Positions 22,293 to 42,272 are shown, numbered from the stretch's first letter. The stretch is DNA of 64,000 bases from Thermodesulfobacteriota bacterium (GCA_034189385.1 JAXHVD010000005.1:64001-128000), one strand, 5' to 3'. The notes: generated by a model not told the origin, from the letters alone. Program-made: numbers and translations.

Positions 22293-22405
22293 CGAGAAAC
22301 CTCCTGTATTTGCTATTTTAGAATGTGGATGCCCAGTGTAGCAGGAACTATAAGCATTCAAACCCTTGGTGGCAACCCCTAACCCTTCACACCTGGGCCT
22401 ACTGA

Positions 22406-22768: not shown

Positions 22769-22793
22769 TCTTGGTTCTGCCTCCTCTTTTTCA

Positions 22794-25712: not shown

Positions 25713-25797
25713 GCCTCTCAGATTCTCCTCAATCTATAATGATGGCCCGTTGCCGTCAGTGTATGGGTGTCGCCGGCATGGCCTGCCCCTCATTTGG

Positions 25798-26025: not shown

Positions 26026-26050
26026 CTCCTCCTAATTTCAGTTCTAACCT

Positions 26051-26110
26051 TGATGGTTTCGAAAAAAGTCTTTTTCAAATCATTGAGTCCGCGGGGGCGG
26101 ATGAGAAAAG
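26051..26110. mobile_element. Truncated copy of the MITE-like element at 28721-28942
   Basis: tgatggtttcgaaaaaagtc (18/20 to that element's terminal repeat) followed by a shared cattgag.ccgc..ggcgga stretch. Confidence 0.6.
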
Positions 26111-26113
26111 CAC

Positions 26114-26539
26114 TTACTCCTGGGCCCGTATTCGGTGGAGTTCTTCGCATCCACAGGAAGGGCATTTCTGGGGCCGGCCCGTGCCACGAGGTTCTTTCCA
26201 CTGACTTTTGCAGTGGTCGCAAAGGAAAAGCCGATTTTCTGCCGGGTCTACCCTTTTGTAATTTCCCCCTTCTACATTGATAGCCTTTCCGTAAATGAGT
26301 GCTCCTGCAATGGTTTTGCGCGCCTGTTCGACAATGCGCCCAAATGTGGCTCTTGATACCCCCATCTGCTTGCCTGCTTCTTCATGAGACAACCCCAGAA
26401 GATCAGCGAGCCTTAGCGCCTCAAGCTCATCCACGGTGAGTTGGACCTGTTCCAAGTCGATCATGGGAACTCCCCGCGGTTTGAAGTAGTTTATCTGCGG
26501 GTCAATATTTACAAGTCGGTCTTTTTGCGGACGTACCAT
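26114..26539 (-). CDS. DUF134 domain putative DNA-binding protein with C-terminal zinc ribbon
   Basis: FKPRG, ELEALRLAD, MGVSRATF, EGG; CDHC/CPSC. Confidence 0.88.
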   Translation of the reverse strand: MVRPQKDRLVNIDPQINYFKPRGVPMIDLEQVQLTVDELEALRLADLLGLSHEEAGKQMGVSRATFGRIVEQARKTIAGALIYGKAINVEGGNYKRVDPAENRLFLCDHCKSQWKEPRGTGRPQKCPSCGCEELHRIRAQE

Positions 26540-26779
26540 GGCGCCACCGTTATGAGTGCGTTATGAGTATATGCTAAAAACTACAGTAAACATCCCCCTG
26601 AGCCTTGTCAAGAAATAAAATCATGACCCTGTCAAAGACTCATCAACCTAGCTGACTTGGTCCGTTAGTCGGTGTTCCTCGCTGGGAAAAGCGCGTTGCG
26701 TGGCCATGGGAAGGGCCCTCTTTCGGAAACCTGGCACCAATTTACAGGGGAGCCCCTGTTAAGAGGGGGGCAAGCCTTT

Positions 26780-26979
26780 ACGGGCTGTTGCCCAAATCCC
26801 TTTTCGCTTGGGCTAAAGCGTTTTTTGACAAATGTGGGGCTCGCTCCAGGCGATGTCAAAACTCTCGGCCGCGGCGGATCAAGCAGTTGACATTGCTAGT
26901 CTTCCACTTCGCCAACAGTTGTTGGCAAAAAACGCCTTAATGCCCGCTCAAAGGAATTCTTGTTTGGGCAACAGCCCGT
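26780..26979. mobile_element. MITE-like element with perfect 17-bp terminal inverted repeats, overlapping the ycaO 3' end
   Basis: ACGGGCTGTTGCCCAAA (26780-26796) and TTTGGGCAACAGCCCGT (26963-26979). Confidence 0.65.
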
Positions 26980-28696
26980 TTAGATAGTGCCCGAATTGCC
27001 GCAGGCTCAGAGGGGAAAAGGAATCTAATTCGCTGAACATCTCGAGTCCAGGTATGAAGCTTTTTACCACCGGTATGTCCAAATCGTCTCTGGTGAGATC
27101 CACGTAGACCGGGCTATAGCCATTGGAGACCAGAAGCCTTTCCAAGAGCTTTAGATCCTCGTTGACGTCGCCAGACGAATAGTCTGGAAGATCTTTGTAG
27201 TCCAGTTCCTTGGGGCCGTGGATCACCGACCCAGGGGCAAACCAGGAGGGGTGATAAGGCACCTCTGTAAGCGCCGAGACAGCGGCCCTCTTTCCATCCA
27301 GGTGAGCGGCAGATCCTTTAAGGATTTGTCCATCTGGGCCCTGTATGAAGGCCTTGTAACAGGGGATACCGAATTCTGAAGTGATGTCCAAAAACTGGAC
27401 GTGGATGCCTTCCTTTCTGCAGCCACCTAAGATCTTCTGCACTGGCAGCTCATTCCATGCCAGGGAAAAACACCTTTCCGGAACATAGGGCATGACCCTT
27501 TCTGCATCCCTCTCGATGACCTCCAGCAAGCTGTGCAGTCTAGCCTCCTCAGGCGTGTTTCCGGCAGCCAGACCGGTGGAGGGCAAACCGGTTGATAGGC
27601 TTATTTCATCCAGATTGGAGAACAAAAAGACCAACTGGGCTGGCACGTAGACCGGATGTTGGCCCTTTTCATCTACCCTCACGGCAGACACCCAGTATAG
27701 GGGCTGGTTTCTGTAAGGGACCTCAAGATGGATCTCGTTAGGGTTTAACACGTCAGGGTATTCTTCTCTCAAGTTCTCATAGGTGCCATGGATCAAGGGG
27801 TGGCCGTCTTTGTAGCGCAAGGCCCCTCTTTCATCAAAACTGGCAAAGGATGACACCCTTTCCGCCACCTCCATCCAGCAGGAGGCCCTCGCTTGATCCC
27901 TATCGAGTCCCTTGCCATAACTGGTCTGGGGCCCGGCCAATTCCCAATGGTTTCTCCCGACAGACACCGTCACCTTAAGATGCCATGGTATCTTTAGAGC
28001 AAAGGGGCTGAGACTGGCCTGGTTTTCTGTCTCTTCTCCCGCCTTTAAATCAATGGCCTTCAGCCTTTCCCTGGCCGTGCATGCGATCTCAGAAGGCGTT
28101 GGGACCGGCAGGCCCCCTTTTTGACAGCGCTGGTTCCCTTCTGGAGGCAATAGTCGTGAAATGGGCAAGGTGCTGTTGTACCATGCATCTATCGCTTGCT
28201 GATCAAAGGGGATAGGCCGTTCAAAGTCTCCTGCGGCCTTAAGCGGCCGGTGTCTCAGGAGGTTTTCGGAGAAAAGTTCAAGCCAATAGGCCCTGTTGTC
28301 CCGATCCGCTTTCAAGGACCAGTTGATATAAATAAGTGGCGTACATTCTGCCAGTCCTTTGATGTCTAAACCCTTAAATTCTGGTATCAAATCGTGCAAT
28401 CTGTCATTGAGGAGACAGGTCTCGTACATCAATGCTAGCAAACAAGGGTTCCCCTTTTTTCCTTTTTCTATCAATTGGCGAGTCAGGTTTGGCCCGAATT
28501 TTCCTGCCAGTCCCAGGAGGTGTTTGTGCATGAAGTCGTCGTAAGGATGATCCTGGATATATTCAAACCCGTGTTCCACATCCAGGTCATCGCTGGGCAG
28601 GCACGCAAAGGACCCTGTCCCAAATCGCGTCTCTAGATGCGCCATTTCGTATCTGATAGTACGATGACATGCTGCAAACTCACTGCTTTCATTCAT
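26948..28696 (-). CDS. YcaO-like family protein with N-terminal extension
   Basis: YGKG...ASCWMEVAER and STGLAAGNT.EEA.LH.LLEVIERDA ATP/Mg motifs; PVVKSFIPGLE. Confidence 0.88.
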   Translation of the reverse strand: MNESSEFAACHRTIRYEMAHLETRFGTGSFACLPSDDLDVEHGFEYIQDHPYDDFMHKHLLGLAGKFGPNLTRQLIEKGKKGNPCLLALMYETCLLNDRLHDLIPEFKGLDIKGLAECTPLIYINWSLKADRDNRAYWLELFSENLLRHRPLKAAGDFERPIPFDQQAIDAWYNSTLPISRLLPPEGNQRCQKGGLPVPTPSEIACTARERLKAIDLKAGEETENQASLSPFALKIPWHLKVTVSVGRNHWELAGPQTSYGKGLDRDQARASCWMEVAERVSSFASFDERGALRYKDGHPLIHGTYENLREEYPDVLNPNEIHLEVPYRNQPLYWVSAVRVDEKGQHPVYVPAQLVFLFSNLDEISLSTGLPSTGLAAGNTPEEARLHSLLEVIERDAERVMPYVPERCFSLAWNELPVQKILGGCRKEGIHVQFLDITSEFGIPCYKAFIQGPDGQILKGSAAHLDGKRAAVSALTEVPYHPSWFAPGSVIHGPKELDYKDLPDYSSGDVNEDLKLLERLLVSNGYSPVYVDLTRDDLDIPVVKSFIPGLEMFSELDSFSPLSLRQFGHYLNGLLPKQEFL

Positions 28697-28720
28697 ACAA
28701 TCTCTTCTCTCTTTCAAGAA

Positions 28721-28942
28721 TGATAGAGTCGCAAAAAGTCTTTCGCGAACGACATTGAGCCCGCCGTGGCGGAGGAGGAAAACATTTGAGATGTTCCGGG
28801 TTAAGAAATGCTAACTGTTTGATCCGCCGCCGCGGAGCGTTTTAGCATTTTAGCTGAACCTCTCAAGCGCCCCCATCTCTTTTCAAGCCCGCAGGCGCAA
28901 ATGGTCACGGAGTGAGAAAGTCGACTTTTTACGAATCCATCA
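28721..28942. mobile_element. MITE-like element with 20-bp imperfect terminal inverted repeats
   Basis: tgatagagtcgcaaaaagtc ... gactttttacgaatccatca (17/20 complementary); no ORF. Confidence 0.65.
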
Positions 28943-29204
28943 AGGATGAAACCAATAGGCGACGTTTTTGCTTATTGCCGATAGAGTAAAAGACCCTCCT
29001 TGTCAACAGTGAGATGGACTAGGGCCCCTTTGCCGTGCGCCGTTTTTTCGGTGTCCGGCGGGTGGACGGGCGTGACGCCTTCAGACTTACCCGAAGGACG
29101 GTAAAGACTGGTGCCTAGTCCAAGGCACTGATTGGCCGTTGACAGAAGGCTTGAGGCTCTGTTATCAAGTGTCCACCTTATTTTCAGACTGTGAGGACTG
29201 AATC

Positions 29205-29867
29205 ATGTTGGATTTTTCAAAGACTTTCGAGAAATACGAGGCCCTGGTTTCTGAGGTTGACAAGATCTTCAAGGCCGTGCAGGAGGCGGAAAAGGGTTGC
29301 GTGCGGTGTGAAATCCATTGCTGCGACTGCTGTTACGCCGTGTTTGATCTTACCCTCATTGAGGCCGTTTATGTGAACTATCATTTCAACAGGTCTCTTG
29401 CCAGGAAAGAGAGACGCCCCATCATGAGGCGGGCGGAAAAGGCTGATCGCAAGTATTATCAGATTAAACAAAAACTTCAGAAGATGTACATAGACAAGGG
29501 AAAGCCTCCCGAGGAGGTCTTCCAGCAGTTGTCCCAAGAGCGGGTACCCTGTCCCTTTCTCAATGATGAGAAGATGTGTGACCTCTATGCCCGCAGACCC
29601 ATTACGTGTAGAGTCTACGGGATCCCGACTTCCATTGGGGGCATGGCCCACATCTGCGGAAAATCTGGCTTCAAAAAGGGCATTGCCTATCCTACGGTAA
29701 ACCTGGACAAGATGAATGACCGCCTCTTTGAGCTTTCCGAGGAGCTGCTCAAAGAGATTGGCTCGATCCGTTCAAGGCTTCATATGGGCCTTGTGCCCCT
29801 TTCAGCGGCCTTGATGACCGATTATGACGAGAAATACCTCTTGGCCAAGGACGTTGAACAAGCATAG
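29205..29867 (+). CDS. YkgJ family cysteine-cluster protein
   Basis: CEIHCCDCC...CPFL...CDLY..RP..CR. Confidence 0.88.
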   Translation: MLDFSKTFEKYEALVSEVDKIFKAVQEAEKGCVRCEIHCCDCCYAVFDLTLIEAVYVNYHFNRSLARKERRPIMRRAEKADRKYYQIKQKLQKMYIDKGKPPEEVFQQLSQERVPCPFLNDEKMCDLYARRPITCRVYGIPTSIGGMAHICGKSGFKKGIAYPTVNLDKMNDRLFELSEELLKEIGSIRSRLHMGLVPLSAALMTDYDEKYLLAKDVEQA

Positions 29868-29960
29868 GCTGCCGAAATGGATGTTCGGGGGTGCCCTAGG
29901 TGCTGAAGTAGTGCTTGAAGTAGTGCTTTTGATAGTCCTCAATGAAGGAGACATTGATAG

Positions 29961-30308
29961 ATGAGAAAACTATCGCCTGAAGAGGCAGAGAGAAAGAAAT
30001 TCATTTTTGACAGCATGTCCCCCAGGCGGCAGAAGCACATTCTTAAGAGAGAAGGCTATGACGAGTGGGACCCCTTTATTGAGCCAAAAGAGCCGATCGA
30101 TATACGGACCGACAAATCAAAACGGACGGCCATTCAACTGGCCAGGGAGTTTTTGGCCAGCTGGAGTCACGAGGACTACAGCAACGCCTTCGGGCAAGGG
30201 GCCTGGGAAATCTGCCTTGGGTTGATGAATGATGATGATCGCTTTAAAGGGATGTATGAGTTTTCCTGCTGGTATCGCGACCACCTGAAGAAGGAAGGGC
30301 TGGAGTGA
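29961..30308 (+). CDS. Hypothetical protein
   Basis: Clean ORF with GAAGGAG RBS in operon context. Confidence 0.75.
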   Translation: MRKLSPEEAERKKFIFDSMSPRRQKHILKREGYDEWDPFIEPKEPIDIRTDKSKRTAIQLAREFLASWSHEDYSNAFGQGAWEICLGLMNDDDRFKGMYEFSCWYRDHLKKEGLE

Positions 30309-30366
30309 GAAGGCAGCAACCTTCAAGGCATTCCAGATTCAAGAAAGGCCTTTCTGGTTCAGTCTT

Positions 30367-32694
30367 ATGTCTGTCAATTTCCTCTTCGTTCACGTCAACT
30401 TGTTAGCCCCCATTGAGTCTCCGGACACCATCCCCATATCTGAGGCTACTATTCTGGCCCACCTGAAGGATCACGGGTTCTCTGGTCAGATCTTGGGAGA
30501 TTTCCTAAATCGTCCCCTGAAACCTCACCTTTTGGGCAGGGCCATCCACACCCACGAGCCCCTTGCCGTGGGCTTTACCGCATATCAGGAGAATATAGAA
30601 CAGATAAGACTTTGGGCCAGATTTGCCAAGAAGATGTCGCCACATATCAAAATTATCCTTGGAGGACCCCAGGTCACCTTCATGCCTGCTCAGGCCCTAG
30701 GGCATATGCCGGAGGTGGATTTTCTTTGCAGGGGCGAAGGCGAGGAGGTGATGTTGGGCCTCGCCCGGGCCCTGAGCCGAGGGACAGACCCTGCTGGGGT
30801 GCCTGGGTTGTGCTTTTTTCAGGAAGGGAAGGTGGTGGAGACTGGCCCGGCCCACGGTGCCAAGGACTTGGATACCTATGCCTCCCCTTATCTCACGGAC
30901 CTCGTCGACCTGGCGCAAAAGGAACGGGTCGTGATGCTCACATCAAGGGGGTGCTCCTACAATTGCGCCTTTTGTTATACCCCGAAAGCCTGCGGCAAGA
31001 AAGTGAGATTCTACTCCATAGAGCGGATTATTGATGAGATGCAATATGTCAAATCCAAAGGGGTCAGGGCCTTTTGGTTTGCCGACCCCAATTTTTCTTT
31101 TTCCCGCAAGCGCTTGGAGGCACTGTTGGAGGCCATTATCACAAAGGTGCCAGGCATTACTTTCTGGTGTCAGACAAGGTACGACCTTGTTGACCGTGAG
31201 CTCTTGTCGCTGCTCAAGCGCGCCGGTGCTGATAATTTGGCATACGGATTGGAGTCGGCAAACCCCGGAGTCCTTGAGCGCATTAACAAAGGCATTGACC
31301 TTGAGCGTCTGTCAGAGGTCGTCCGCTTGACCCAAGAGGCCGGCATCCAGGTGGAGCTCTTTAGCATGTTTGGTCTTCCAGGGGAGACCTTTGACCAGGC
31401 ATTGAACACGCTGTCTTTTGTGAAAGAAAACGGGGTGGCCATAGACGGCAACTCTATATCCCAGCAAGCCCATCTCTTCTTTGGGACGCCCATGAATGAC
31501 AGCCCCGAGGCCTTTGGACTGCGCCCCTTCCCATGGGCACGCCCTGCCTACCTGAGCGTGTGCAGGGATTATGAGACCGACACCATGTCGGCAGACGAGA
31601 TTAAACAGATCAGTTTGATCTGGCGACTGAATCGTAGCGACTTTGCGGAAGACGTGCAAAGCGGAAGAAACCTGTTTCACAGGGCATCCTTTGTTACCCA
31701 AAATCAGAAGGCCTTGGCTCAGCGGCCTGAAGCTGCTTGCTTGCTTGCTCGGATATATCTCGGCCTTGAAGAATATAGAGCAGCCTTGGATTGCATGGAG
31801 AGATTGAACAAGGCTTTTCCTCAGGATCGTGCAACAGAATCGCTCCTGCAAGGGCCTTTCTTGTGCTTCAAGGTGACTCATGAGAGATCACGCCCCGGGT
31901 GTAAGGTCATCTACGACTGTCATGGTTCTATTGGTGGCAAGCCCGTGCCTGAAACGTGCGCAAGGTTTCAGGAGGCCATTCTTGGTGAAGGGGCACTTCT
32001 GCTGGCCTTTGAAAGGGAGCTTGCGGGGATGGGCCGAGGAGAAGAGAGAGAATTTGACATCACTTTCCCGGAAGGCTACGGACAGCCGCAGCTTGCCGGC
32101 GAGGCCGTTACGTTTCGTGTGTATTTGCATCATGTTTTAGAACCAATAACGGTGGAAAGATATGAAGACCTTGACGGAAGGGTGTCGGCCAATGAATATA
32201 CCTTGGCAGACAGTGAAGGGCTGCAACAATACAACATCAATCTATACTACAAGGTCCTTGGTGGGGCTGTTAGGAGAGGGTGGAAACCTCCCATGGCCGA
32301 TTGCCTCATGCTCATGAATCTGTTCCTTACGTTGGGGTTCGTGGATCGGGCCGCAGCGCTTATTGAAGACCTTCCTCAAAACCCCGTGGCCCTGTCCCAC
32401 GGAGCCCACATCTTTGCCGTGAATGGTCAACCTGAGAAGGCCCTGGAGCTTTTGGACAGGGCAGGTAACGATGGGCCTAGGGGGCCTTTGATCCGGGCCC
32501 AAGCGTTATTTGATCTAGATAGGTTCGAGGAAGCAGAGGCACTGGTGAAAGACATGAAAAACCTCAACGATATCCAGCTCACAGGCCTTCAAGTGGAGCT
32601 TGCCTCCAGGCTATGCCTTCCCATGGAGACGCTGCTTGAGAGAAAAGAGCGTCTCCTCGATGCAAAAATGCAGGCCCTTCTTCAAACGAGGTGA
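30367..32694 (+). CDS. B12-binding radical SAM protein with trigger-factor-like FKBP domain and TPR-like repeats
   Basis: B12 domain (IILGGPQVT, RGEGE), RGCSYNCAFC, GLES; then LAGMGRGEEREFDITFPEGYGQPQLAGEAVTFRV; helical repeats. Confidence 0.85.
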   Translation: MSVNFLFVHVNLLAPIESPDTIPISEATILAHLKDHGFSGQILGDFLNRPLKPHLLGRAIHTHEPLAVGFTAYQENIEQIRLWARFAKKMSPHIKIILGGPQVTFMPAQALGHMPEVDFLCRGEGEEVMLGLARALSRGTDPAGVPGLCFFQEGKVVETGPAHGAKDLDTYASPYLTDLVDLAQKERVVMLTSRGCSYNCAFCYTPKACGKKVRFYSIERIIDEMQYVKSKGVRAFWFADPNFSFSRKRLEALLEAIITKVPGITFWCQTRYDLVDRELLSLLKRAGADNLAYGLESANPGVLERINKGIDLERLSEVVRLTQEAGIQVELFSMFGLPGETFDQALNTLSFVKENGVAIDGNSISQQAHLFFGTPMNDSPEAFGLRPFPWARPAYLSVCRDYETDTMSADEIKQISLIWRLNRSDFAEDVQSGRNLFHRASFVTQNQKALAQRPEAACLLARIYLGLEEYRAALDCMERLNKAFPQDRATESLLQGPFLCFKVTHERSRPGCKVIYDCHGSIGGKPVPETCARFQEAILGEGALLLAFERELAGMGRGEEREFDITFPEGYGQPQLAGEAVTFRVYLHHVLEPITVERYEDLDGRVSANEYTLADSEGLQQYNINLYYKVLGGAVRRGWKPPMADCLMLMNLFLTLGFVDRAAALIEDLPQNPVALSHGAHIFAVNGQPEKALELLDRAGNDGPRGPLIRAQALFDLDRFEEAEALVKDMKNLNDIQLTGLQVELASRLCLPMETLLERKERLLDAKMQALLQTR

Positions 32695-32725
32695 TAGGTG
32701 CCGCTTAGTCATTTGGAAGGACCCT

Positions 32726-33544
32726 ATGGCCAGCGAAATAGAAGAGAGAGTATACAAAGCGGTCTGTGAATCGAACAGGAAACTCACCCCCCGTGAGGTA
32801 GAGCTCGCCTGCGTAAAAGAGATCGGAACTGACAGACAAAGGGTAAAACAGGCCGTTAGGGCGTTGGTGAAGCAGGGGGCCCTGAGCTACACCTATGTCT
32901 ATGGTACCAGTTTCCTGGAGCCCTCTTTTGACAGGCCTGTGAGGGTTTCCAAGCGGATCGTCCTGAAGCCCCCTCAGAAGCGGTATGAACCACTCCCGGG
33001 AGAGGTGGTGATGGACATTGCAGGGGGAGCTGCCTTTGGAAACGGGGCCCATCCGACCACGTGCCTGGCCCTACAGGCTATAGATGGTGCCCTAGACGAT
33101 GCTTTTTCCTCAACAAGAAAGGGGCCTTTTACTGGGCTGGATCTTGGGACAGGCACAGGGATCTTGGCCATTGCACTGGCAAAACTGGGTGTTGAAAGGG
33201 TCCTTGGCCTTGATATCGACCCCTGTGCGGTGTCTGAGGCCAGACACAATGTTTCTTTAAATGGGCTTTCGGAACAGGTTACGGTAGCGAACACTCCCTT
33301 GCACAAGGTGGCTTCAAGTTTTTCTGTCATTGCGGCCAATCTGGCCTATCCAACCCTTGCGGGCTTCTGCGCCCGGCTATCAGAGAAGTTGGAGGCAGGG
33401 GGCATCCTGGTCCTTTCAGGGTTTAAGGGGGCTGCGGCCAAAGACCTTAAAAGAGCCTATTCAGAACAGGGTTTGAGATTGATTCGAGAAGAGACCGATC
33501 GTCAGTGGGTCGGCCTGGTGCTAGGCAAACCAGAAAGGCCTTGA
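32726..33544 (+). CDS. PrmA-like SAM-dependent protein methyltransferase with an atypical N-terminal domain
   Basis: AFGNGAHPTT, LDLGTGTGILAI, DIDP, ANL, LVLSG. Confidence 0.85.
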   Translation: MASEIEERVYKAVCESNRKLTPREVELACVKEIGTDRQRVKQAVRALVKQGALSYTYVYGTSFLEPSFDRPVRVSKRIVLKPPQKRYEPLPGEVVMDIAGGAAFGNGAHPTTCLALQAIDGALDDAFSSTRKGPFTGLDLGTGTGILAIALAKLGVERVLGLDIDPCAVSEARHNVSLNGLSEQVTVANTPLHKVASSFSVIAANLAYPTLAGFCARLSEKLEAGGILVLSGFKGAAAKDLKRAYSEQGLRLIREETDRQWVGLVLGKPERP

Positions 33545-33578
33545 AGCCGGCGCAGGATGTGAGAGAACGACGCACCTC

Positions 33579-34889
33579 TCATGAAAAAAAGCTCCCCATG
33601 ATCCTGCTGAATGCCTCTCCCTGCTGGGGGGCCGAGGGTTTCGTCTCCTTTGATATGAGGATGTCTCTTCTCAGGAAGGGCAAAAAGTCTGACACCTTTG
33701 GGATGATGACCCTTACGGCTGGAAAAGCCAACACCGGATGGGTATGATCTAGGATGATACATTCAGTGTTAAGCTGTGTGCATATCCTTTTGACTTCTTC
33801 AATTTCGCTAAGCATGTCTTTGATCTCAATAGGTTTACAGGTGGTCCTGTCTCCTTGTTCAAGAAAGGAGATGTCCTTCAAGGAAACACCGCATCTCATC
33901 AACATATAAAGATCCCTGATGCGGGATCTGTGAACTACTGGTCGATCGAACTGCGGACGCGGTGCTCGGAGTGTCTCTCGGCCTTGAACACCTTCTAAAA
34001 GGCATCTTCTCAACCCTTCCCATGAATGGAAAGATGCGCCGGCTATGAGCATTCTATGTTCCAATCGGTCAGGGCGCAGATTGTGGTTGATAAACAGGAC
34101 GCCTATGCTGGGAAGGAGTCCATTGAAAGAAAGGTCTTTGATCATGATAGCAACATTGCTCTTTTGGTAGAGCTCGATCATATCCTTTATAAGCGGGTCG
34201 TCCACCGAGTCCAGTTCTATCGTGGGCACGGTTTTTTCAGGTTTGATGATTTGTATTTGGGCGTGACGTTCAAATATCTCACATGAGGCCTGGATGATGG
34301 CCTCTTCAATGGTATTTCCCGCTGCCATCCCATTGGAACCATGGATATAGGCGATGAAATGGACTGGCACTTTTACGATCTTTTCGCTGATGATTGAAAA
34401 CCCGTCTACCCAGTCCCTGGCCATTCTGCTGTTCTTAATCTCTTCAATGTCTTTCTCTGTCAGGTGACGCTCGGCTGCCAGCAGGTCCTCTATTTTCAAA
34501 GGATTCTCCAAATCATCCTGATGGGCATGGACGTATCCCTCCATCCATTCGTAATTCAGAAATCGGTTGGTTTCCTGATTGTAGAGGCCGGGTGCGTTAA
34601 CCCTCACCTGTTCCTCAAAAACCGGATAGAACAGACCAGCGCTGAAACGTTCTGCCAGTTCGGCGTGTGCACTGGCCTCTGCCAGCTCTGGAGTAGTGCC
34701 TTTTCCCTCACAGACGATCCTCATGGAATCAATCCATACACGGCCCCAATGCATATTGTTCGAGATGCCGAAAGGGGAGTATTCCGTGTAGAGCTCCAGT
34801 TTCTGTAAACCGTCCTTAATTCTACTAACCGTGTTGGACGGAAGATCACACTTGCCGTATTCATTTCTGATGTCGTTTTGAAACTCCAT
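33579..34889 (-). CDS. Second YcaO-like family protein
   Basis: EGKGTT...ASAHAELAERF and GSNGMAAGNTIEEA..QA.CEIFERH; VRVIIP. Confidence 0.88.
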   Translation of the reverse strand: MEFQNDIRNEYGKCDLPSNTVSRIKDGLQKLELYTEYSPFGISNNMHWGRVWIDSMRIVCEGKGTTPELAEASAHAELAERFSAGLFYPVFEEQVRVNAPGLYNQETNRFLNYEWMEGYVHAHQDDLENPLKIEDLLAAERHLTEKDIEEIKNSRMARDWVDGFSIISEKIVKVPVHFIAYIHGSNGMAAGNTIEEAIIQASCEIFERHAQIQIIKPEKTVPTIELDSVDDPLIKDMIELYQKSNVAIMIKDLSFNGLLPSIGVLFINHNLRPDRLEHRMLIAGASFHSWEGLRRCLLEGVQGRETLRAPRPQFDRPVVHRSRIRDLYMLMRCGVSLKDISFLEQGDRTTCKPIEIKDMLSEIEEVKRICTQLNTECIILDHTHPVLAFPAVRVIIPKVSDFLPFLRRDILISKETKPSAPQQGEAFSRIMGSFFS

Positions 34890-35248
34890 TCGACCTGTTT
34901 CTCCCAAGTTATGATGATAGAGAAGGCATTTTTTGAGGGAAGAATATAAAAAGAGAGGGCCTAGTGTGTCAAGGTTTGGATATCGAGCTGTGGACCCATC
35001 TGTTTTCACGGGTGGGCAACCGCTCTTGACAGGGGATGATGGTTTATAATATACGACATTGATGTTTTTAGGGCAGCATGCTGGCGGCGTACACAATAAG
35101 TCTTTTTGAACGAAAGGGGGGGTGCGCGTTTCGGTCAGGAAGCATGTCTTAAGAAGGTTCCCACTCGAGGTCAGGGGGGGGTGTTTTTTGGGGGCGGTCT
35201 AACCGCACATATCAAGTCAAGAAGCTGTTAGTAACAGGAGGTGTCTAA

Positions 35249-35581
35249 ATGGCGGACTATTACATCAATGTCTTTTTGGATGGGGACAAACTCAAGCAGG
35301 TCGAGGATGCTGGATTGGCAGATCAGGTTCAGGAAATAGATGGCAAAAAGGCCGTTCAAGTGGTTGTTAACAGAAAGGAACAAAAGAAACTTGCGAAAGG
35401 GTTTCCAGATATGTCCTTTGACGCTTCAAATGCCTGCGTGCTTCCTGAAGAAGCGGAGAAGACCTTGATGGGTTTTATAACGGAAAACAAGTCCTTGGAT
35501 GTGATGAAGTTTGCGATTCTGAAGCTATACAACCCTCTTGCCGGAAGGGGCATCTCTGGAAGGGGGACGGGGGGGCGCTAG
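35249..35581 (+). CDS. Hypothetical protein with Gly/Arg-rich C-terminal tail
   Basis: Strong RBS CAGGAGG; clean ORF. Confidence 0.8.
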   Translation: MADYYINVFLDGDKLKQVEDAGLADQVQEIDGKKAVQVVVNRKEQKKLAKGFPDMSFDASNACVLPEEAEKTLMGFITENKSLDVMKFAILKLYNPLAGRGISGRGTGGR

Positions 35582-35772
35582 TAATAGACAAGAACGCCCT
35601 TTTTCAAACAACATGCCGTTCAGAGAGGGAATGGGCCCGTCTACCCATTCCCTCTCTTATTCCGATGGGTTCTGACCCGGCAAGGGTGTCAAGCGGCCAC
35701 TTGGATTTCTTGGCACCAAAAACAGAAACGTCGTTAGTGAACGACTGAAGACTCAACGGTTCAAAAAGGAAC

Positions 35773-36399
35773 GTGATGAAAAAGCCGAAGACTACGAGAG
35801 AATACATTGAAGACCAGGTGCGGACCTTGGTTAGCACCCCTGAGTGTGGAACGACGCACTACAACCTTGCCGTGGGGCTGATTGCAGAGGGAAGGTGGGA
35901 TGAGGCCAGGGAGGAACTCCTGGCTGCCGTCAATGAATGCCCCACTTTGGGAGAGGCTTACGTGGCCCTAGGTGGCCTTTCTTTGCGCAAGGGAGATCTG
36001 GACGCCTGTATCCACTTTAATCAGCGGGCCATTGCGGTGAGGCCGAAGTTTGCCCAGCCCTATGGAAATCTTGGTTTTGTCTATGTACAAAAGGGTGATC
36101 CAGAGACGGCCGTTGATTTCCTGGAAAAAGCGGTCTCCATTAACCCCATGTTCATTCAGGCGTACAGCACCTTGGCCAGTGCCTACTTTATGCTGGGCCG
36201 ACTGGATGAATCGATTGCAGTCGCCAACAAGGCGTTGGAGCTTGATTCCACCTTTCCCGTTGCTCATAACAACCTGGCCCTGGCTTATTTTGAGAAAAAG
36301 GCCTACAAAGAGGCTATCGAGCATTGCGACAAGGCCCTGTCTGGAGGATTTCAGGTTGAGCCGAAGTTCTTAAAGGAGTTGGAGCCTCATCGGCAGTGA
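35773..36399 (+). CDS. Tetratricopeptide repeat protein
   Basis: Repeated AY.NLG / AHNNLA TPR units. Confidence 0.9.
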   Translation: MMKKPKTTREYIEDQVRTLVSTPECGTTHYNLAVGLIAEGRWDEAREELLAAVNECPTLGEAYVALGGLSLRKGDLDACIHFNQRAIAVRPKFAQPYGNLGFVYVQKGDPETAVDFLEKAVSINPMFIQAYSTLASAYFMLGRLDESIAVANKALELDSTFPVAHNNLALAYFEKKAYKEAIEHCDKALSGGFQVEPKFLKELEPHRQ

Positions 36400-36426
36400 T
36401 GGGCCTTTTGTCCAACGGTTTCCGAC

Positions 36427-37680
36427 TTGATTTCGGATATCCATTATCCACCTCTATGCCCTACTGATAAGGGCATCTTGCAGTCTTTGACTATCGCCCA
36501 CCAACCCAACATCAAGTACCTGCTCCCTTCCCCTGAAGGATACGTGCCAGCTGATGCGTCTTTGTGCCAGACTCCCATGCGTCTGACCCGTTGTGAGGCC
36601 CGCCCGTCCCATGGCCCTGCCTTCACATATGGTGCCTATTTCAAAGCGATTCGAGACGTCATTTCCAAAGATGGCCACAAGCTGCTGGTCCACGCTACAG
36701 AGAGGCGACTGGCAAGGAAGGTCCTGCTCTCTGATATGGAAGCGGTCCTCATTTATGGGGAAAAGCACGGGAGTGACTACCATCCGGCCAGGATCGAGGT
36801 ATGGGCGCAAGGCGCCTGCGTCTCTTTTGTCATGAACGTGGCTGTTTCGGCAAGGGGAAAGGTGCGGCTGTGTCACGAGTATGATGTCTTGCGGCACCTT
36901 GACAGGAAATTTGTTTTTTCCTTTTTGCCGCATCCTTATTTTTACGGAGAGGCCTCCTGTCATGGGGGCCACGATGGAGAGACAGATACATTAATGACCA
37001 TGTTTTTGGCAGACTGGTTTGAGGGGTATCACGAGTTCCACCTTTCCATGGACAAGGCGACTGGTTCCCAAAGGCTGGTGATGTGGGATGCGGACAAGGG
37101 CAACCCATCCCTTTCACGCCAACAGGCCTGGGAGCTATACCGTCAGGGGGCCATGATTCTTACCCTCTATTACGACATCGAGACCTTCGAACAGATCTTC
37201 CCCTGGCATCATGCCGCCGGAGACTTCGTGGTCAGGGCAGAGGACGATGGCCTTGACATGAAGCTGGTGACGGCAAGGCAATATGGCCCTATGGTGGACC
37301 CCTGCCAAGGGGTTTCAGCCTATGAGGCATTACTCCTTTTCTTGTTGAACCTGTCCATGAGGATGCGGCTGGACCGTCTGGATGGTGTGGGCGCTGTGGC
37401 TTGGGCAGACAGCGAGTGCGTGGGCGCCATCGTGAAGGGCTTTGTGGATGGACTCAGGATGAAGGAGCAAGAAGGGATGATTCCCAGGGGTTTTGTAAAT
37501 GCCTTCCTCCGACAATGCGCTTCCTTTGCCAGACGCCACCTATCAGAGAGGTTCCATGCCCTTGTGGATGCCTGTGATCCAGGGGCTCCAGATATGCCTG
37601 TTATTAGACGGTGCCTGGGAAGGCATATCCAAGAGTGCCATTTGACCCTTCAAGAAGAATCCAAGAGCCAGTTGGCATAA
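36427..37680 (+). CDS. Hypothetical protein, possibly kinase-like fold (start uncertain)
   Basis: Long ORF; HHAAGDFVV...MKLVTAR loosely resembles the catalytic-loop region of kinase-like folds. Confidence 0.65.
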   Translation: MISDIHYPPLCPTDKGILQSLTIAHQPNIKYLLPSPEGYVPADASLCQTPMRLTRCEARPSHGPAFTYGAYFKAIRDVISKDGHKLLVHATERRLARKVLLSDMEAVLIYGEKHGSDYHPARIEVWAQGACVSFVMNVAVSARGKVRLCHEYDVLRHLDRKFVFSFLPHPYFYGEASCHGGHDGETDTLMTMFLADWFEGYHEFHLSMDKATGSQRLVMWDADKGNPSLSRQQAWELYRQGAMILTLYYDIETFEQIFPWHHAAGDFVVRAEDDGLDMKLVTARQYGPMVDPCQGVSAYEALLLFLLNLSMRMRLDRLDGVGAVAWADSECVGAIVKGFVDGLRMKEQEGMIPRGFVNAFLRQCASFARRHLSERFHALVDACDPGAPDMPVIRRCLGRHIQECHLTLQEESKSQLA

Positions 37681-37748
37681 ACGGGTTGCCCCTTGCCAAC
37701 GCCCTCTCGTGCAAGAAAAAACAACCCGGCCAGGCAAGGTTTTTTTTG

Positions 37749-37777
37749 TTGACAAAACGCACGAATAAGTCTATAGG
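37749..37777 (+). promoter_or_regulatory. Sigma70-type promoter for dsrAB
   Basis: TTGACA-N17-TATAGG. Confidence 0.55.
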
Positions 37778-37971
37778 CTGGGGCTGCACAAGCGTCTTTT
37801 CATCCTTAAGTTTGCGACATTCCTTTAACACACTAACACCCATTTTTCTCTGCGCCGGCGGTTGCGTTGCACAGGGATCATCGGACATGGAGAGGAGGTG
37901 AGGAGCGACATCCTTGTAATCGGAAGCGAGCTACAGAGAGATTTCTCAAATAATGAAATGGAGGTGGAATA

Positions 37972-39294
37972 ATGGTTGAGTTCAAACACAAAACTCCCAT
38001 GATTGATCAGCTGGAAACTGGGCCTTGGACGAGCTTTGTCTCAGACATCAAGCGCGAACACGAGTCCAGGATGAACAACGAAAAAGGGATCGATTACCAG
38101 TTTGACCAGGATTGTTGCGATGACCTCTTGGGTGTATTGGAGTTATCCTATGAGCACGGCAGGACCCACTGGAAGCACGGCGGCATCGTGGGCGTGTTCG
38201 GATATGGCGGCGGCGTCATCGGCCGGTATTGCGACCAGCCTGAGATGTTTCCAAGTGTGGCCCACTTTCATACCATGCGTGTGAATCAACCCATGGGGCA
38301 CTACTACACCACGGAGTACTTGGAGCAGCTCATGGACCTGTGGGAAAGACGCGGCAGCGGTATTACCAATATGCACGGTTCCACAGGGGACATCATCTTT
38401 CTCGGGACAAGCACGCCCCAGTTGGAAGAGGTCTTCTATGAATTGACCCACAACATCAACCAGGACCTGGGTGGTTCAGGGTCGAACCTGCGGACCCCCT
38501 CTGACTGCATGGGTCAGTCCATGTGCGAGTGGGCCTGCTACGACACGCAGGAGATCTGTTATCAGCTTACCATGGAGTATCAGGACGAGCTGCACAGGCC
38601 GGCCTTCCCATACAAGTTCAAGTTCAAGTTTGACGGATGCCCCAACTGCTGCGTGGCTTCCATTGCCCGATCTGACCTCTCCTTTATCGGCACCTGGCGC
38701 GATGAGATCCGTATCGACCAGGAGGCGGTCAAGGCCTATGTAGGCGGTGATTTAGTGCCTGGCGGCGGTGACCATGCGGGTCGCGATTGGGGCGCCTTTG
38801 ACATCGAAAAAGAGGTGATCGATATTTGTCCCACTCAGTGTATGCGATGGGACGGCAGCAAGCTTGAGATCAATAACCCTGAGTGCACCCGGTGCATGCA
38901 CTGCCTCAGCGTCATGCCCAGGGCCCTTCGAATAGGAAATGATAGGGGCTGTTCCATCTTGGCCGGCGCCAAGGCCCCCATCCTGGATGGGGCCCAGATG
39001 GCTACACTGATTGTACCGTTTATCAAGGTTGAACCGCCCTATGATGAGATCAAGGAGACAGTCGTCGAGCCCATCTGGGATTGGTGGATGGAAGAGGGCA
39101 AGAACCGCGAGCGCCTTGGTGAGTTGATTAAACGGCAAGGGATGCAGAAGCTTTGCGAGGTCACCGGTTTCAAGGCCATCCCCCAGATGGTCCAGGAGCC
39201 TCGATCCAATCCGTACGTCTTCTGGAAAGAGGAAGAAGTACCTGGCGGATGGAAGCGCGATATTAACGAATTCAGGAAGTATCATCAGAGATAG
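37972..39294 (+). CDS. dsrA: Dissimilatory sulfite reductase alpha subunit
   Basis: [50 protein letters not shown]. Confidence 0.99.
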
Positions 39295-39305
39295 GGGGTG
39301 AAACC

Positions 39306-40457
39306 ATGGCGTTTATTTCTTCAGGATACAATCCCGACAAACCGATGGAAAACAGGATTACCGATATCGGACCGCGATATTACGAGGAATTCTATCCACC
39401 AATCATCAAGAAAAACAAAGGCAAATGGCTCTATCACGAAATCCTAGAGCCGGGCATTGTGGTGCATGTGGCTGAAAGCGGAGACGAACTCTATACGATC
39501 CGCTGTGGCGGCTGTCGCTTGATGACTGTGTCGCACATCCGTGAAATCATGGAGATTGCCGATAAGTACTGCGACGGCTATGTCCGGTGGACGACGCGGA
39601 ATAACGTGGAGTTCATGGTGGATAGCAAGGACAAGGCCATGGCCTTGAGAGACGACGTAATGGCCCGGAAACAGCCTGGCGGGTGTTACAAATTTCCCGT
39701 TGGTGGCACGGGCGCTGGCATTACCAATATCGTCCACACCCAGGGCTGGATTCACTGCCACACACCGGCCACGGATGCCTCTGGAACGGTCAAGGCCACG
39801 ATGGACGAGGTCTTTGACGATTTCACCAGCATGAGGCTTCCGGCCAAGCTCAGGATTTCCATGGCCTGCTGCCTGAACATGTGCGGCGCAGTTCACTGTT
39901 CCGATATTGCGATTCTGGGTTACCACCGCAAGCCGCCCATGATTGATGTGGAGTACATTGACAAGATGTGCGAGATTCCCCTGGCCGTTGCAGCCTGCCC
40001 CACGGCAGCCATCAAGCCGGCCAAGGTGGAAGTCGATGGCAAAAAGCTCAACAGCGTAAAGGTGAACGAAGAGCGGTGCATGTTCTGCGGCAACTGCTAC
40101 ACCATGTGCCCGTCCATGCCGTTGGCTGACACAGAGGGAGATGGTATCGTTCTGATGGCAGGCGGCAAGATATCAAACAGGGTAGACGCACCGAAGTTTT
40201 CCAAGGTTGTCGTCGCCTTCATCCCCAACGAACCGCCTCGCTGGCCCACGATGACCAAAACTATCAAGAAGATGGTTGAGGTGTACTCCGCCGACGCAAA
40301 CAAGTACGAGCGCTTTGGCCAATGGGCTGAGAGGATCGGCTGGGAGAGATTCTTTGAGAAGACCGGTCTGGAATTTACCCATCATCTCATCGACGATTTC
40401 CGTGATCCGGCCTATTACACCTGGCGTCAGACCACGAACTTCAAGTTTACCAAGTAG
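39306..40457 (+). CDS. dsrB: Dissimilatory sulfite reductase beta subunit
   Basis: [49 protein letters not shown]. Confidence 0.99.
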
Positions 40458-40545
40458 AAGAGGTAAAAACGAAAACACTAGCCCCTCCCCCCGCGGGGGA
40501 GGGGCGACACACACGATACTTTGAATCTCGGAAAAGAGGCAAGCA

Positions 40546-40785
40546 ATGGACGAAGAAGCAGCAAAAAAGACGATCATAGAAGCGCTTGAGAAGAAAAAGG
40601 GGAAGTCCAAATTTTATCTGAAGGACTTCTACAAGATGCTTCCTGACGAGAAAAACAGGGCCGTGAAGAACCTGGTGAACAAAATGGTGGGCGAAGGGAC
40701 CCTCGAGTACTGGTCCAGCGGAAGCACTACCTTGATCGGTCTTAAAGGTGCCGGTAAGCAGCAGCACGGAGAAGGCGAGGATTAG
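40546..40785 (+). CDS. dsrD: DsrD protein
   Basis: KSKFYLKD, LEYWSSGSTT; directly after dsrB. Confidence 0.95.
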   Translation: MDEEAAKKTIIEALEKKKGKSKFYLKDFYKMLPDEKNRAVKNLVNKMVGEGTLEYWSSGSTTLIGLKGAGKQQHGEGED

Positions 40786-40868
40786 CCGAAGCTCGTTCCT
40801 TGAACGGGGTCTCTCGGGCCACTGTTCAGGAAAGCCAGCTTATTGACGGCTGTCAAGAAACCAAACCT

Positions 40869-42272
40869 ATGGCTGTTCCCCGTATCCTGATTACGGCCCT
40901 TCGGGGCGGGTCGGGGAAGACGATCGTCTCTCTGGGAGTGATCGCGTCTTTGCGCAAGCGAGGGATGGCCGTTACCCCCTTTAAGAAGGGACCGGATTTT
41001 ATCGATGCGGGGTGGCTGGCCCTAGCCGCCGGCCACCCCTGTCATAACCTGGACACCTTCTTGATGTCCTCCCGGCAGATCTATCTTTCCTTTTCAACCC
41101 ACACACTTGAGTCAGACCTGGCCGTGATCGAAGGCAACCGGGGTCTCTACGATGGTATGGACCTTGAAGGCAGTACCAGTACCTCGGAACTGGCCAAGCT
41201 CCTGAAGGTCCCTGTGGCCCTTATCATCGATTGTACCAAGACGACCCGCACTGTGGCGGCTCTGGTCTTGGGCTGTGTCCAATTCGACCCCCACGTGAAC
41301 ATCTGCGGCGTAATCCTGAATCGGCTGGCTGGCGCCCGCCATGAATCGATCACCCGCCAGACGGTTGAGCAGCAATGTGGCCTTCCTGTCCTGGGTGCCA
41401 TCCCCAAGATCAAGGGTGAAGCCTTTCCAGAAAGGCACATGGGCCTCGTGCCAACGCCCGAGCATAACTGGGCTGAGGAATCGATTGCCCAGGCGGCGCA
41501 GATGGCGGACAAGTACTTGGATCTGGATGCCATTGTAAAGATCGCCGAAGGGGCACCTGGTTTAGATGATATCCCGCCCACACCATCCCCCCGTGGCCAG
41601 GGGAGAGGAGAGAAGGGTCTATCGCCTCGCATTGGGATCATCCGCGATGGGGCCTTTCAATTCTACTATCCTGAAAACCTGGAGGCCCTTGAGGCCGCCG
41701 GCGCAACGATTGTTACGTTGAATGCCCTTTCAGATCAAGGCCTTGGCGATCTGCATGGCCTTTACATTGGGGGAGGGTTTCCAGAGACGCAGGCCCAGGC
41801 CCTTTCCGCAAACAGAGGCTTTCGGCAGGACCTGCGCCGGTTGGCCGAAGAGGGGCTTCCCATCTATGCCGAGTGCGGCGGCCTCATGTATCTGGGGGAG
41901 CGCTTGGTCTTGGACGGCGTAAGTTATCCCATGGTGGGGGTCCTTCCTGTTACCTTCGGGTTCTCAAGACGGCCTCAAGGACACGGCTACACCATTTTTG
42001 AGGTAGCAAAGCCCAACCCCTTTTTCAAGGTCGGGGCCCATGTTCGGGGCCATGAGTTTCATTATTCCAACGTGTTGGAATGGCAAGAAGCATCAGAGGA
42101 TCTGGCCTTTAAGATGATCCGGGGAGAGGGGTTTAACGGCACGGGGGACGGTCTTTGCTACAAGAACACTCTGGCCACCTATTCTCATATCCATGCCCTG
42201 GGGAACCCTCTCTGGGGCGAGGCCATGGTCAAGGCGGCGGGGGCATTTCAAAAAGGAAAGCTCACGGCGTAA
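40869..42272 (+). CDS. dsrN: Siroheme amidase / cobyrinate a,c-diamide synthase homolog
   Basis: GGSGKT, KKGPDFID, EGNRGLYDG, AECGG, GHEFHYS; position after dsrD. Confidence 0.9.
   Translation: MAVPRILITALRGGSGKTIVSLGVIASLRKRGMAVTPFKKGPDFIDAGWLALAAGHPCHNLDTFLMSSRQIYLSFSTHTLESDLAVIEGNRGLYDGMDLEGSTSTSELAKLLKVPVALIIDCTKTTRTVAALVLGCVQFDPHVNICGVILNRLAGARHESITRQTVEQQCGLPVLGAIPKIKGEAFPERHMGLVPTPEHNWAEESIAQAAQMADKYLDLDAIVKIAEGAPGLDDIPPTPSPRGQGRGEKGLSPRIGIIRDGAFQFYYPENLEALEAAGATIVTLNALSDQGLGDLHGLYIGGGFPETQAQALSANRGFRQDLRRLAEEGLPIYAECGGLMYLGERLVLDGVSYPMVGVLPVTFGFSRRPQGHGYTIFEVAKPNPFFKVGAHVRGHEFHYSNVLEWQEASEDLAFKMIRGEGFNGTGDGLCYKNTLATYSHIHALGNPLWGEAMVKAAGAFQKGKLTA

Follow-up and report, generated by a model that had tools for sequence, protein, structure and literature searches.

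YcaO proteins beside dsrAB in Thermodesulfobacteriota: a tentative case for backbone modification of a sulfite-reduction protein

What might two YcaO proteins, a cobalamin-binding radical SAM protein, and a methyltransferase be modifying when their genes lie next to those for sulfite reduction? In the window, by which we mean the entire 64,000-nucleotide stretch of a Thermodesulfobacteriota genome analyzed here, nine ORFs directly precede dsrA, all of them present between 26948 and 37680 as stated in an earlier note on this DNA. The two YcaO genes, which that note called divergent, both lie on the minus strand, and the remaining seven are plus-strand genes; what stands is that they belong to two separate clades. 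The features are as follows.

26948..28693, minus strand: YcaO-A, 581 aa (PF02624, 165 bits)
29205..29867, plus strand: YkgJ/CxxCxxCC cysteine-cluster protein, 220 aa (PF03692, 24.4 bits, cut-off 23)
29961..30308, plus strand: conserved 115-aa protein (no Pfam or NCBIfam family above cut-off)
30367..32694, plus strand: cobalamin-binding radical SAM protein, 775 aa (PF02310, PF04055, and PF00254 above cut-off)
32726..33544, plus strand: PrmA-like SAM methyltransferase, 272 aa (PF06325, 141 bits)
33579..34889, minus strand: YcaO-B, stand-alone, 436 aa (PF02624, 167 bits)
34943..34972, minus strand: sigma-70-like promoter match 5' of YcaO-B (11/12 consensus bases)
35249..35581, plus strand: DUF6955 protein, 110 aa, divergent from YcaO-B (PF22271, 84.5 bits)
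35776..36399, plus strand: TPR protein, 207 aa (Pfam TPR models)
36427..37680, plus strand: orf417, with an APH/choline-kinase-like fold in a structure model (400 aa in the database call)
37972..42272, plus strand: dsrA, dsrB, dsrD, and dsrN (TIGR02064, TIGR02066, PF08679, and cobB-type models above cut-off); dsrA starts at 37972 and scores 601 bits with TIGR02064

Both YcaO proteins exceed the PF02624 cut-off of 25.7 bits. The start of YcaO-B is most likely ATG 34889 (436 aa) rather than TTG 35096, because nearly all of the best 120 homologues have this length; the sigma-70-like site at 34972-34943, a consensus match only and the best of 12 sites versus 7.4 expected, also fits this start. The protein is highly conserved, with the best 120 homologues at least 69% identical, and YcaO-B C-termini end in SFFx. 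Its clade, which carries no name, is separate from the unnamed clade of YcaO-A. The intact ATP-binding motifs previously ascribed to both proteins are complete in YcaO-B and present only in part in YcaO-A. In the former, 16 of 17 ATP/Mg-binding positions checked are invariant in 25/25 sequences, and the remaining one is Ser or Thr. In the latter, all Glu ligands, Ser271, Arg279, and Arg395 are invariant, but in the Sx6-7Ex3Qx3ExxER motif His takes the place of Gln (His, Ser, or Ala across the clade), and Ser or Ala occupies the position of E. coli Arg286 in 34/38 sequences (the E. coli number was placed on the window proteins through alignments). YcaO-A joins a YcaO core to a helical N-terminal extension of about 190 aa without a clear fold match; its model (pLDDT 90.9) has M. 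jannaschii YcaO 6PE3 as its best fold match (Z 29.8, rmsd 3.1, 338 residues aligned), and its C-termini bear HYL-like tails. YcaO-B is predicted to activate a backbone amide with ATP.

Such an activity has parallels among known systems. Supplied with Na2S, Mg, and ATP, the YcaO of E. coli thioamidates uL16, a folded protein, at Met82 in the absence of TfuA; other findings of the same work are that stand-alone YcaOs thioamidating folded proteins without TfuA exist, that TfuA is optional in sulfide-rich habitats, and that MCR and uL16 are the only two thioamidated proteins named (PMC13063428). The SSN data in the supplements of that paper may include the window YcaO clades. A profile search of the present genome, which is 90% complete, indeed found no TfuA (PF07812), and, again in agreement with the earlier note, no E1-like partner, azoline dehydrogenase, exporter, or precursor is found among the window ORFs or recurring neighbors; the window's listed ORFs likewise include no ThiS-like one ending in GG. 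Like the E. coli enzyme, YcaO-B is stand-alone, lacks TfuA and a precursor peptide, and has the same ATP-site motif, and it aligns over residues 60-404, yet it is 150 aa shorter and, unlike that enzyme, is dsr-linked and almost confined to genomes with dsrA. A second parallel is the methanogen YcaO(/TfuA) system acting on McrA: the YcaOs of M. jannaschii (6PE3) and M. kandleri (6CI7) are the best PDB sequence matches to both window YcaOs, and there, too, a central energy enzyme is the target, as it may be here, with a B12 radical SAM enzyme nearby. In contrast to that system, no TfuA was found and the window YcaOs are patchy rather than universal in their host group, and they score 119 and 79 bits with TIGR03266, the methanogen type, whose cut-off is 365. 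A third is the sulfate-reducer YcaO DVU2210 (PMC7774982), whose SAGN/AAGN..EE...Q..CE..ER motif is similar to that of YcaO-B but whose C-terminal TPR fusion is absent from both window YcaOs, which form separate clades. The third YcaO of this genome (contig C2) has a TPR tail and is 23-28% identical to the window YcaOs; its architecture and motif, rather than a sequence comparison, suggest a likeness to DVU2210.

The link to sulfite reduction was assessed in a phylum sample of 251 genomes, 129 with dsrA and 122 without. Four YcaO clades are almost restricted to the former, with dsrA in 87/88 carrier genomes (YcaO-A, 17/17; YcaO-B, 4/4; DVU2210-like YcaO-TPR, 83/84; the fourth clade, 11/11), and 42 of the 129 dsrA genomes have none of them. 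The chance for a gene to fall within 10 kb of dsrA is about 0.6%; linkage is far above this for orf417, the TPR protein, DUF6955, and YcaO-B; YcaO-A and the radical SAM protein show only weak linkage. YcaO-B maps to within 10 kb of dsrA in 3/3 other phylum-sample genomes and beside it in 20/41 metagenome loci spanning 10 kb or more, in several gene orders; among clusters at 90% identity, arranged in a quick YcaO-B tree, 16/38 are linked. These loci differ in order and orientation; in some, YcaO-B immediately precedes dsrA or TPR-dsrA and is read in the same direction. In an order sample, the linkage holds in only 4/13 other YcaO-B carriers with dsrB found. Three YcaO clades are each found beside dsr genes. 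The gene for orf417 occurs in 40/251 genomes, 38 of the 40 having dsrA, and lies within 10 kb of it in 30/39 other genomes, while DUF6955 occurs in 53/251, 51 of them with dsrA, and adjoins either dsrAB or sat-aprBA (sat is its neighbor in 27 of the best 30 loci; within 10 kb of dsrA in 10/13 of the window-type subgroup). Synteny and profiling, then, show that in other genomes these genes accompany dsrAB and one another, in line with the earlier proposal of a system acting on a Dsr protein.

That proposal named DsrAB and DsrD as examples of a target; the residue-level evidence points to DsrB, and there is none for DsrD. The signal lies at DsrB residue 186 (Met codon at window positions 39861-39863), two positions before the cluster-binding cysteines; the motif match begins at 39864. 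Met is found here in 19/19 YcaO-B loci versus 11/77 others (control, 1/300), in a column first chosen among about 820 and with kin that are not independent. In an independent sample, Met186 is present in 10/12 YcaO-B carriers versus 25/77 others, and the column is the best of 22 variable ones. Two YcaO-B carriers (G281 and G325) lack Met186, and 25 genomes that have no YcaO-B show it; among same-family pairs, one speaks for the association (f122), one against it (f99), and two are neutral. Co-variation scans of DsrA, DsrD, and the TPR protein gave no column like it (best differences, 0.68, 0.64, and 0.68). DUF6955 remains a second candidate substrate: it is adjacent to YcaO-B in 4/4 phylum-sample genomes and 20/80 loci. 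It is disfavored in that its tail varies among YcaO-B carriers, it is present in about 49 genomes in which no YcaO-B was found, and it is missing beside YcaO-B in L207-L218, L200, and L249. An Atlas search with it gave no usable match.

Taking these findings together, we tentatively propose, with a probability of roughly 0.45, that YcaO-B thioamidates a sulfite-reduction protein, the likely target being DsrB near Met186, amid a neighborhood of optional, stand-alone enzymes predicted to modify proteins. By analogy with E. coli YcaO on uL16, ATP-dependent O-phosphorylation would activate one backbone carbonyl of the target, which the cell's own sulfide would then attack to yield a thioamide, TfuA being unnecessary. 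The radical SAM protein might C-methylate, and the PrmA-like enzyme Lys-methylate, proteins of the same pathway, while the TPR, orf417, YkgJ, 115-aa, and DUF6955 proteins could serve as scaffolds or chaperones. The radical SAM protein is B12 binding, as noted before, with a cobalamin domain and a CxxxCxxC radical SAM domain (CSYNCAFC), and additionally carries TPRs and an FKBP/trigger-factor-like C-terminal domain; methyl transfer is predicted from these domains. All of its 25 best NCBIfam models are below cut-off, including that for the MCR Gln methyltransferase (TIGR04014, 94 bits, cut-off 360). The PrmA-like protein has its own N-terminal extension, with residues 97-293 alone matching Pfam PrmA, and its long form is found in 16/20 hand-picked genomes. 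A more far-reaching version is rather improbable: here sulfate reducers would modify their central sulfur enzymes much as methanogens do MCR, with the thioamide in DsrB beside Met186, two residues ahead of the cysteines holding the siroheme-coupled cluster, and with DsrC and its partners as substrates of the other YcaO clades, the radical SAM protein, and the PrmA-like enzyme. The full-length radical SAM form occurs in 15/251 genomes, 15/15 with dsrA, and by coordinates within 10 kb of dsrA in 0/14; in family f24, the gene lies between YcaO-TPR and dsrC in 4/4 loci examined.

The most serious rival, doubtful as it is, holds that these are housekeeping genes of sulfate reducers that drifted near dsrAB, with ribosomal or unrelated targets and a linkage reflecting inheritance or co-expression. 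The best NCBIfam matches of YcaO-B and the methyltransferase are indeed E. coli-type YcaO and PrmA, but the scores are far below cut-off: 92 bits of 700 with NF040716 (19 bits for YcaO-A) and 112 of 183 with the PrmA equivalog TIGR00406, four further PrmA models also being below theirs. The genome moreover has a second PrmA-like gene, a paralogue on contig C62. The window YcaOs have pI values of 5.6 and 5.35, with homologue medians for their clades of 5.65 and 5.89, unlike the 4.4 of the uL16 type. YcaO-A is the loosest member of the neighborhood: by coordinates it is mostly unlinked (within 10 kb of dsrA in 2/16 genomes), and in a scan of named genomes its one locus lay away from dsr genes. 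That YcaO-A has no neighbor in common outside one family fits this rival. The absence of a dsr gene from the available DNA of 21/41 long YcaO-B loci also fits, as does the normal growth on sulfate of a D. vulgaris strain deleted for DVU2210, a YcaO-TPR (PMC7774982), and both count against our preferred reading. Conversely, only 1/122 dsrA-negative genomes of the phylum has any of the four YcaO clades, yet all have ribosomes, and the dsr link persists through many rearrangements.

It is distinctly improbable that the enzymes act on small molecules or cofactors, as in siroheme tailoring with DsrN or the handling of sulfur oxyanions. The earlier idea that orf417 is kinase-like holds for its fold, which is bilobed in a model of pLDDT 92.5 and is shared with APH/choline-kinase-like small-molecule kinases (8AGY: Z 13.7, rmsd 3.8, 226 residues aligned; 8AGY, 4DBX, and NahK 4OCJ: Z 13.0-13.7), a Foldseek search giving E 2.6e-4 for the kinase fold; the usual catalytic motifs are rewired. 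By motif spacing and predicted strands rather than superposition, His stands at the catalytic Asp position in 56/59 sequences, T-A/V-R at the DFG position, and mostly Asn at the beta-3 Lys position, whereas K96, G98, W243, D249, and R267 are invariant. No match came from Pfam/NCBIfam, and nothing under E 0.4 from a profile search against PDB sequences; DUF6206 is a lead (Atlas feature score, 0.94). This fold speaks for small-molecule substrates, as do the weak BchE, BzaD, and HpnR matches of the radical SAM protein, whose class B relatives often methylate cofactors, the position of YcaO-A beside dsrN in G005, and the contribution of DVU2210 to molybdate sensitivity, with a proposed role in activating molybdate (PMC7774982). 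Against them, the YcaO enzymes of PMC13063428 work on peptide backbones, and the TPR and FKBP-like domains of the radical SAM protein and the helical extension of YcaO-A suit protein binding.

Less likely still, in fact very unlikely, is that the nine genes form one dedicated DsrAB maturation system directly parallel to the MCR modification cluster. All nine genes are seen again in the identical order in 4/80 metagenome loci (protein identity 54-92%), but these four are close kin, as their DsrA is 84-96% identical to the window DsrA. A backbone of YkgJ, 115-aa, (PrmA-like), TPR, orf417, and dsrA is kept in three other families (L099, L157, and L033). L189 lacks the radical SAM gene, however, L099 lacks it and both YcaO genes at this site, and YcaO-A, YcaO-B, the full-length radical SAM protein, and orf417 are found together in only 2/251 genomes. 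The plus-strand backbone of YkgJ, 115-aa, TPR, and orf417 genes is a recurring dsrAB neighborhood, in which matches to the YkgJ, 115-aa, and TPR proteins appear in 16, 12, and 43 of 80 dsrA neighborhoods, some of the last being weak generic TPR matches, and the nine genes are optional, separately inherited modules rather than one obligate system. The original notion of a maturation system for a Dsr protein is supported in part, by co-occurrence and the TfuA-free precedent and not by the unity of the nine genes; of its two small hypotheticals, one is DUF6955 (PF22271) and the other the 115-aa protein of no named family. Finally, it is highly improbable that the locus is a cryptic RiPP cluster built around a small precursor: a YcaO, a B12 radical SAM enzyme, and a methyltransferase are a common RiPP enzyme set, and YcaO-B relatives of about 600 aa exist at 30-40% identity, but the gaps hold only ATG-started ORFs of 14-28 aa, an E1-like partner, dehydrogenase, protease, or exporter is not recurrent among the clustered neighbors of 83 YcaO-B loci (representatives scanned), TIGR03604 gives 109 and 63 bits with a cut-off of 219, the window YcaOs lack the Pro-rich C-terminal tail of azoline-forming RiPP YcaOs, and the enzymes occur singly and scattered in other genomes. 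An Rfam search of 26000-46000 recovered one tRNA and nothing else.

Full-text searches, covering main texts and few subscription journals, turned up nothing on YcaO beside dsrAB, DUF6955, or Dsr thioamides. Should thioamidation by YcaO-B be borne out, it would add a third thioamidated protein, on a key sulfur-cycle enzyme, and backbone chemistry would then adjust the terminal enzymes of both great anaerobic energy pathways; shifts of +15.977 on Dsr proteins would have passed as Met oxidation. Even with the target wrong, the neighborhood points to proteins that likely assist Dsr. It also offers several unannotated marker families for sulfate reducers (orf417, DUF6955, the 115-aa protein, and the YcaO clades), a peptide and a mass to look for, and candidate enzymes for the Lys methylation reported, with no enzyme assigned, for AprA, AprB, and DsrC of D. 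vulgaris; in the same study a DsrC peptide that lacks Met, Cys, and Trp bears an additional "oxidation," in keeping with our preferred reading (PMC3125180).

Nine ORFs occupy positions 26948-37680, immediately upstream of dsrA, dsrB, dsrD and dsrN, which bears out the earlier note's description of a dsrAB-adjoining locus with two YcaOs:

26948-28693, minus strand: YcaO-A, 581 aa
33579-34889, minus strand: YcaO-B, 436 aa
36427-37680, plus strand: orf417, a kinase-fold protein just upstream of dsrA (37972)
Remaining plus-strand ORFs: YkgJ/CxxCxxCC protein; 115-aa protein; cobalamin radical SAM (TPR plus FKBP-like tail); PrmA-like methyltransferase; DUF6955 protein; TPR protein

That these genes make up a protein-modification locus, as the same note had suggested, stands in part: the neighborhood recurs with dsr genes and its unnamed YcaO clades are found, in our sample, almost only in dsrA genomes, but it is modular and patchy rather than a fixed unit. 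We propose, with a probability of about 0.45, that it is a recurring dsrAB accessory neighborhood of stand-alone candidate protein modifiers, in which YcaO-B would thioamidate a sulfite-reduction protein, with DsrB near Met186 as the likely target. The GC content is even over the whole window. The genome, which is 90% complete, additionally codes for a third YcaO with a TPR tail and a second PrmA-like protein, and gave no match to TfuA; its nearest named relatives are labeled Desulfobacterales or Thermodesulfobacteriota.

In a quick tree, YcaO-A and YcaO-B form separate clades, each distinct from the TPR-fused clade C (YcaO-TPR, DVU2210-like) and the 484-aa clade D, and both score under every cut-off for the named YcaO subfamilies. 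The 120 best homologues of YcaO-B are at least 69% identical and fall into nearly one cluster at 50%, and 16 of 17 checked positions of the ATP site are invariant across 25 sequences. In YcaO-A the Glu ligands are retained, but the motif Gln is replaced by His and, in 34 of 38 sequences, Ser/Ala stands at what we take, via E. coli YcaO numbering, to be the Arg286 position. Its model best matches methanogen YcaOs (6PE3, Z 29.8; 6CI7, Z 27.2) and includes an additional N-terminal helical part with weak matches only. A wider unnamed family around YcaO-B (P0363-P0401, P0404) comprises proteins of 440-650 aa with 30-44% identity and a common C-terminal "..SFF" helix; one of them is a fusion with an FAD oxidoreductase domain.

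The proposed mode of working is like that of the stand-alone YcaOs that thioamidate proteins, although the YcaOs of the window belong to neither known subfamily. By analogy with characterized YcaOs, YcaO-B would use ATP to phosphorylate a backbone carbonyl oxygen, which sulfide would then displace. One study shows that E. coli YcaO thioamidates Met82 of uL16 in its folded state, given Na2S and without TfuA, notes that organisms of sulfide-rich habitats may manage without the latter, and warns that the thioamide mass shift is easily mistaken for Met oxidation (PMC13063428). A Desulfovibrio vulgaris study reports methylated Lys in AprA, AprB and DsrC, the enzyme not being named, and a DsrC peptide without Met, Cys or Trp that carries "trimethylation + oxidation" (PMC3125180); this "oxidation" is possibly a candidate thioamide. 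The portion of PMC8477390 consulted makes no mention of YcaO, TPR or radical SAM genes. Deletion of the YcaO-TPR gene DVU2210 leaves sulfate respiration normal and, combined with sat deletion, results in molybdate resistance (PMC7774982); any modification is therefore likely to be tuning rather than a requirement. As for orf417, it has an APH/choline-kinase-like fold with rewired catalytic motifs, and we infer that a helper role in nucleotide binding is more probable for it than that of an ordinary kinase.

Our sample of the phylum comprised 251 genomes, 129 of them with dsrA. Orthologues (weaker cross-clade matches being excluded from each count) were found in dsrA genomes in 17/17 cases for YcaO-A, 4/4 for YcaO-B, 11/11 for clade D and 38/40 for orf417. 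The corresponding values are 15/15 for the full-length radical SAM and 83/84 for clade C (the exception being G193), for both of which misses are likely because only 4-5 candidates were scored per genome. Kin genomes in the sample are non-independent. Any of the four YcaO clades is present in 88 genomes, 87 of them with dsrA; none of the four was found in 42 of the 129 dsrA genomes. DUF6955, compared by eye in this sample, occurs in 53 genomes, 51 with dsrA. In family f9, orf417 is carried by two genomes, each 99% complete, that yielded no dsrA (G001:C10:43612 and G175:C28:43524), and three others (G005, G138, G273) have two copies of dsrA or dsrB each, with G005 also having two full radical SAM copies.

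Physical linkage to dsr genes differs from component to component. We analyzed 80 dsrA neighborhoods, none longer than 20 kb, which represent 78 dsrA genomes out of the 129. The TPR protein appears in 43 of them (with some weak hits), orf417 in 20, YkgJ in 16, the 115-aa protein in 12, DUF6955 in 7, YcaO-B in 3, YcaO-A in 2 and the long PrmA-like form, with its N-terminal extension, in 1. By coordinates, the gene lies within 10 kb of dsrA in 30/39 other genomes for orf417, 10/13 for dsr-type DUF6955, 3/3 of the phylum sample for YcaO-B, 2/16 for YcaO-A and 0/14 for the full radical SAM. The latter is still tied to the pathway by its placement elsewhere: both copies in G005 are at contig ends and start downstream of dsrD or orf417; in G197 it heads TPR and YkgJ; and 4/4 fetched loci of family f24 have it between a clade C YcaO and dsrC. 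The long PrmA-like form is present in 16 of 20 hand-picked genomes, in 3 of these within 10 kb of dsrAB.

For YcaO-B, 137 metagenome loci were confirmed, and dsrA is found in 21 of the best 80 of these and in 20 of the 41 that extend to at least 10 kb. Clustering at a 90% identity threshold, in which three genome loci and the window were included as well, gave 38 clusters: 16 dsr-linked, 7 with other block genes, 10 long and unlinked, and 5 too short. The gene orders vary: in some loci YcaO-B diverges from DUF6955, in others it immediately precedes dsrA, lies upstream of TPR-dsrA, neighbors dsrC, or forms a tandem with YcaO-A behind dsrABD. The nine-gene order in full is seen in 4 of the best 80 metagenome loci (L178, L187, L188, L194), whose DsrA identities mark them as close kin. 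Another set, of 109 genomes of the order, includes 15 with YcaO-B; here the gene is dsr-linked in 4 of 13 other carriers in which dsrB was found; several of the remainder have it on separate short contigs, and two (G325, G281) are clearly unlinked. The plus-strand series YkgJ-115aa-TPR-orf417-dsrA is present again in other families (L033, L099, L157). This series is thus a recurring backbone, which modifying enzymes of several clades joined independently.

The choice of DsrB as likely target comes from co-variation. DsrA, DsrB, DsrD and TPR were compared between YcaO-B loci (the window and 20 of 24 dsr-linked loci, four near-identical ones being excluded) and 77 loci of genomes in which YcaO-B was not found. 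DsrB186 is Met in 19/19 YcaO-B loci versus 11/77 others, and mostly Leu elsewhere; when the four distant carrier lineages were swapped for random ones, one trial in 300, taken across every column of DsrA and DsrB, reached this value. In the order sample, where the motif was present in 97/109 genomes and 8 already-used genomes and one duplicate copy were excluded, Met occurs in 10/12 carriers versus 25/77 others (Fisher 0.0012), or 7/9 versus 25/77 without families f1 and f3 (0.012), P values that, taken across kin, overstate the association. With G285 also excluded, the column is the best of 22 variable ones nearby. The exceptions are Leu in two carriers and Met in 25 non-carriers, and of the same-family pairs one is for, one against and two neutral. 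The residue stands before an A-C-C-L-N-M-C motif, whose cysteines presumably ligate the [4Fe-4S] cluster that is coupled to siroheme in the catalytic site. An indirect origin of the co-variation is possible, and we give Met186 itself a low probability as the site of modification.

DUF6955 directly follows sat in 27 of the 30 best loci (L294-L323, e.g., L303:124-3276) and precedes aprBA in 11-13 of them; it is a candidate Sat/Apr helper and marker. It was also detected in a control genome, Sulfolobus acidocaldarius, and our literature search found no paper naming it.

Several further associations were observed around dsr loci. YcaO-TPR (e.g., G000:C2:101852-103579, L094, in the window's own genome) has dsrA close by in G161 and G247, and dsrC in family f24. 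In the window's genome, a short (~430 aa) radical SAM paralogue precedes a gene whose TPR tail resembles that of YcaO-TPR (G000:C2:51254-54180); in family f29 (L112, L113; no YcaO found) such a pair immediately precedes dsrA. A DVU0298-family HEAT-repeat protein with an N-terminal CPFCG/CxCG domain recurs in dsr loci (L200:13974-15110, L096:13110-14228, L256:5179-6276), and in L186-L189 and L194 a separate gene, placed between those for the methyltransferase and the radical SAM, encodes only this domain (L186:3356-3739); the window lacks that gene. Seven near-identical loci (L207, L213-L218), with YcaO-B directly upstream of dsrA, have a LarE-type sacrificial sulfur transferase divergent from it (L214:5782-6654; TIGR00268, 313 bits). 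Window positions 21045-26539 code for a Mrp-type ATPase with a NifB/X-like tail, two MinD-type ferredoxin ATPases, DUF134 and small Gly/Cys-rich proteins, a set that we take to resemble an orange-protein (Orp) cluster and that remains beside YcaO-A in L178, L187 and L188. At 42362-44430 a class III cytochrome c, tatC, a tatA/B-like gene and a tRNA split the dsr cluster between dsrN and dsrT, an order repeated in several related loci.
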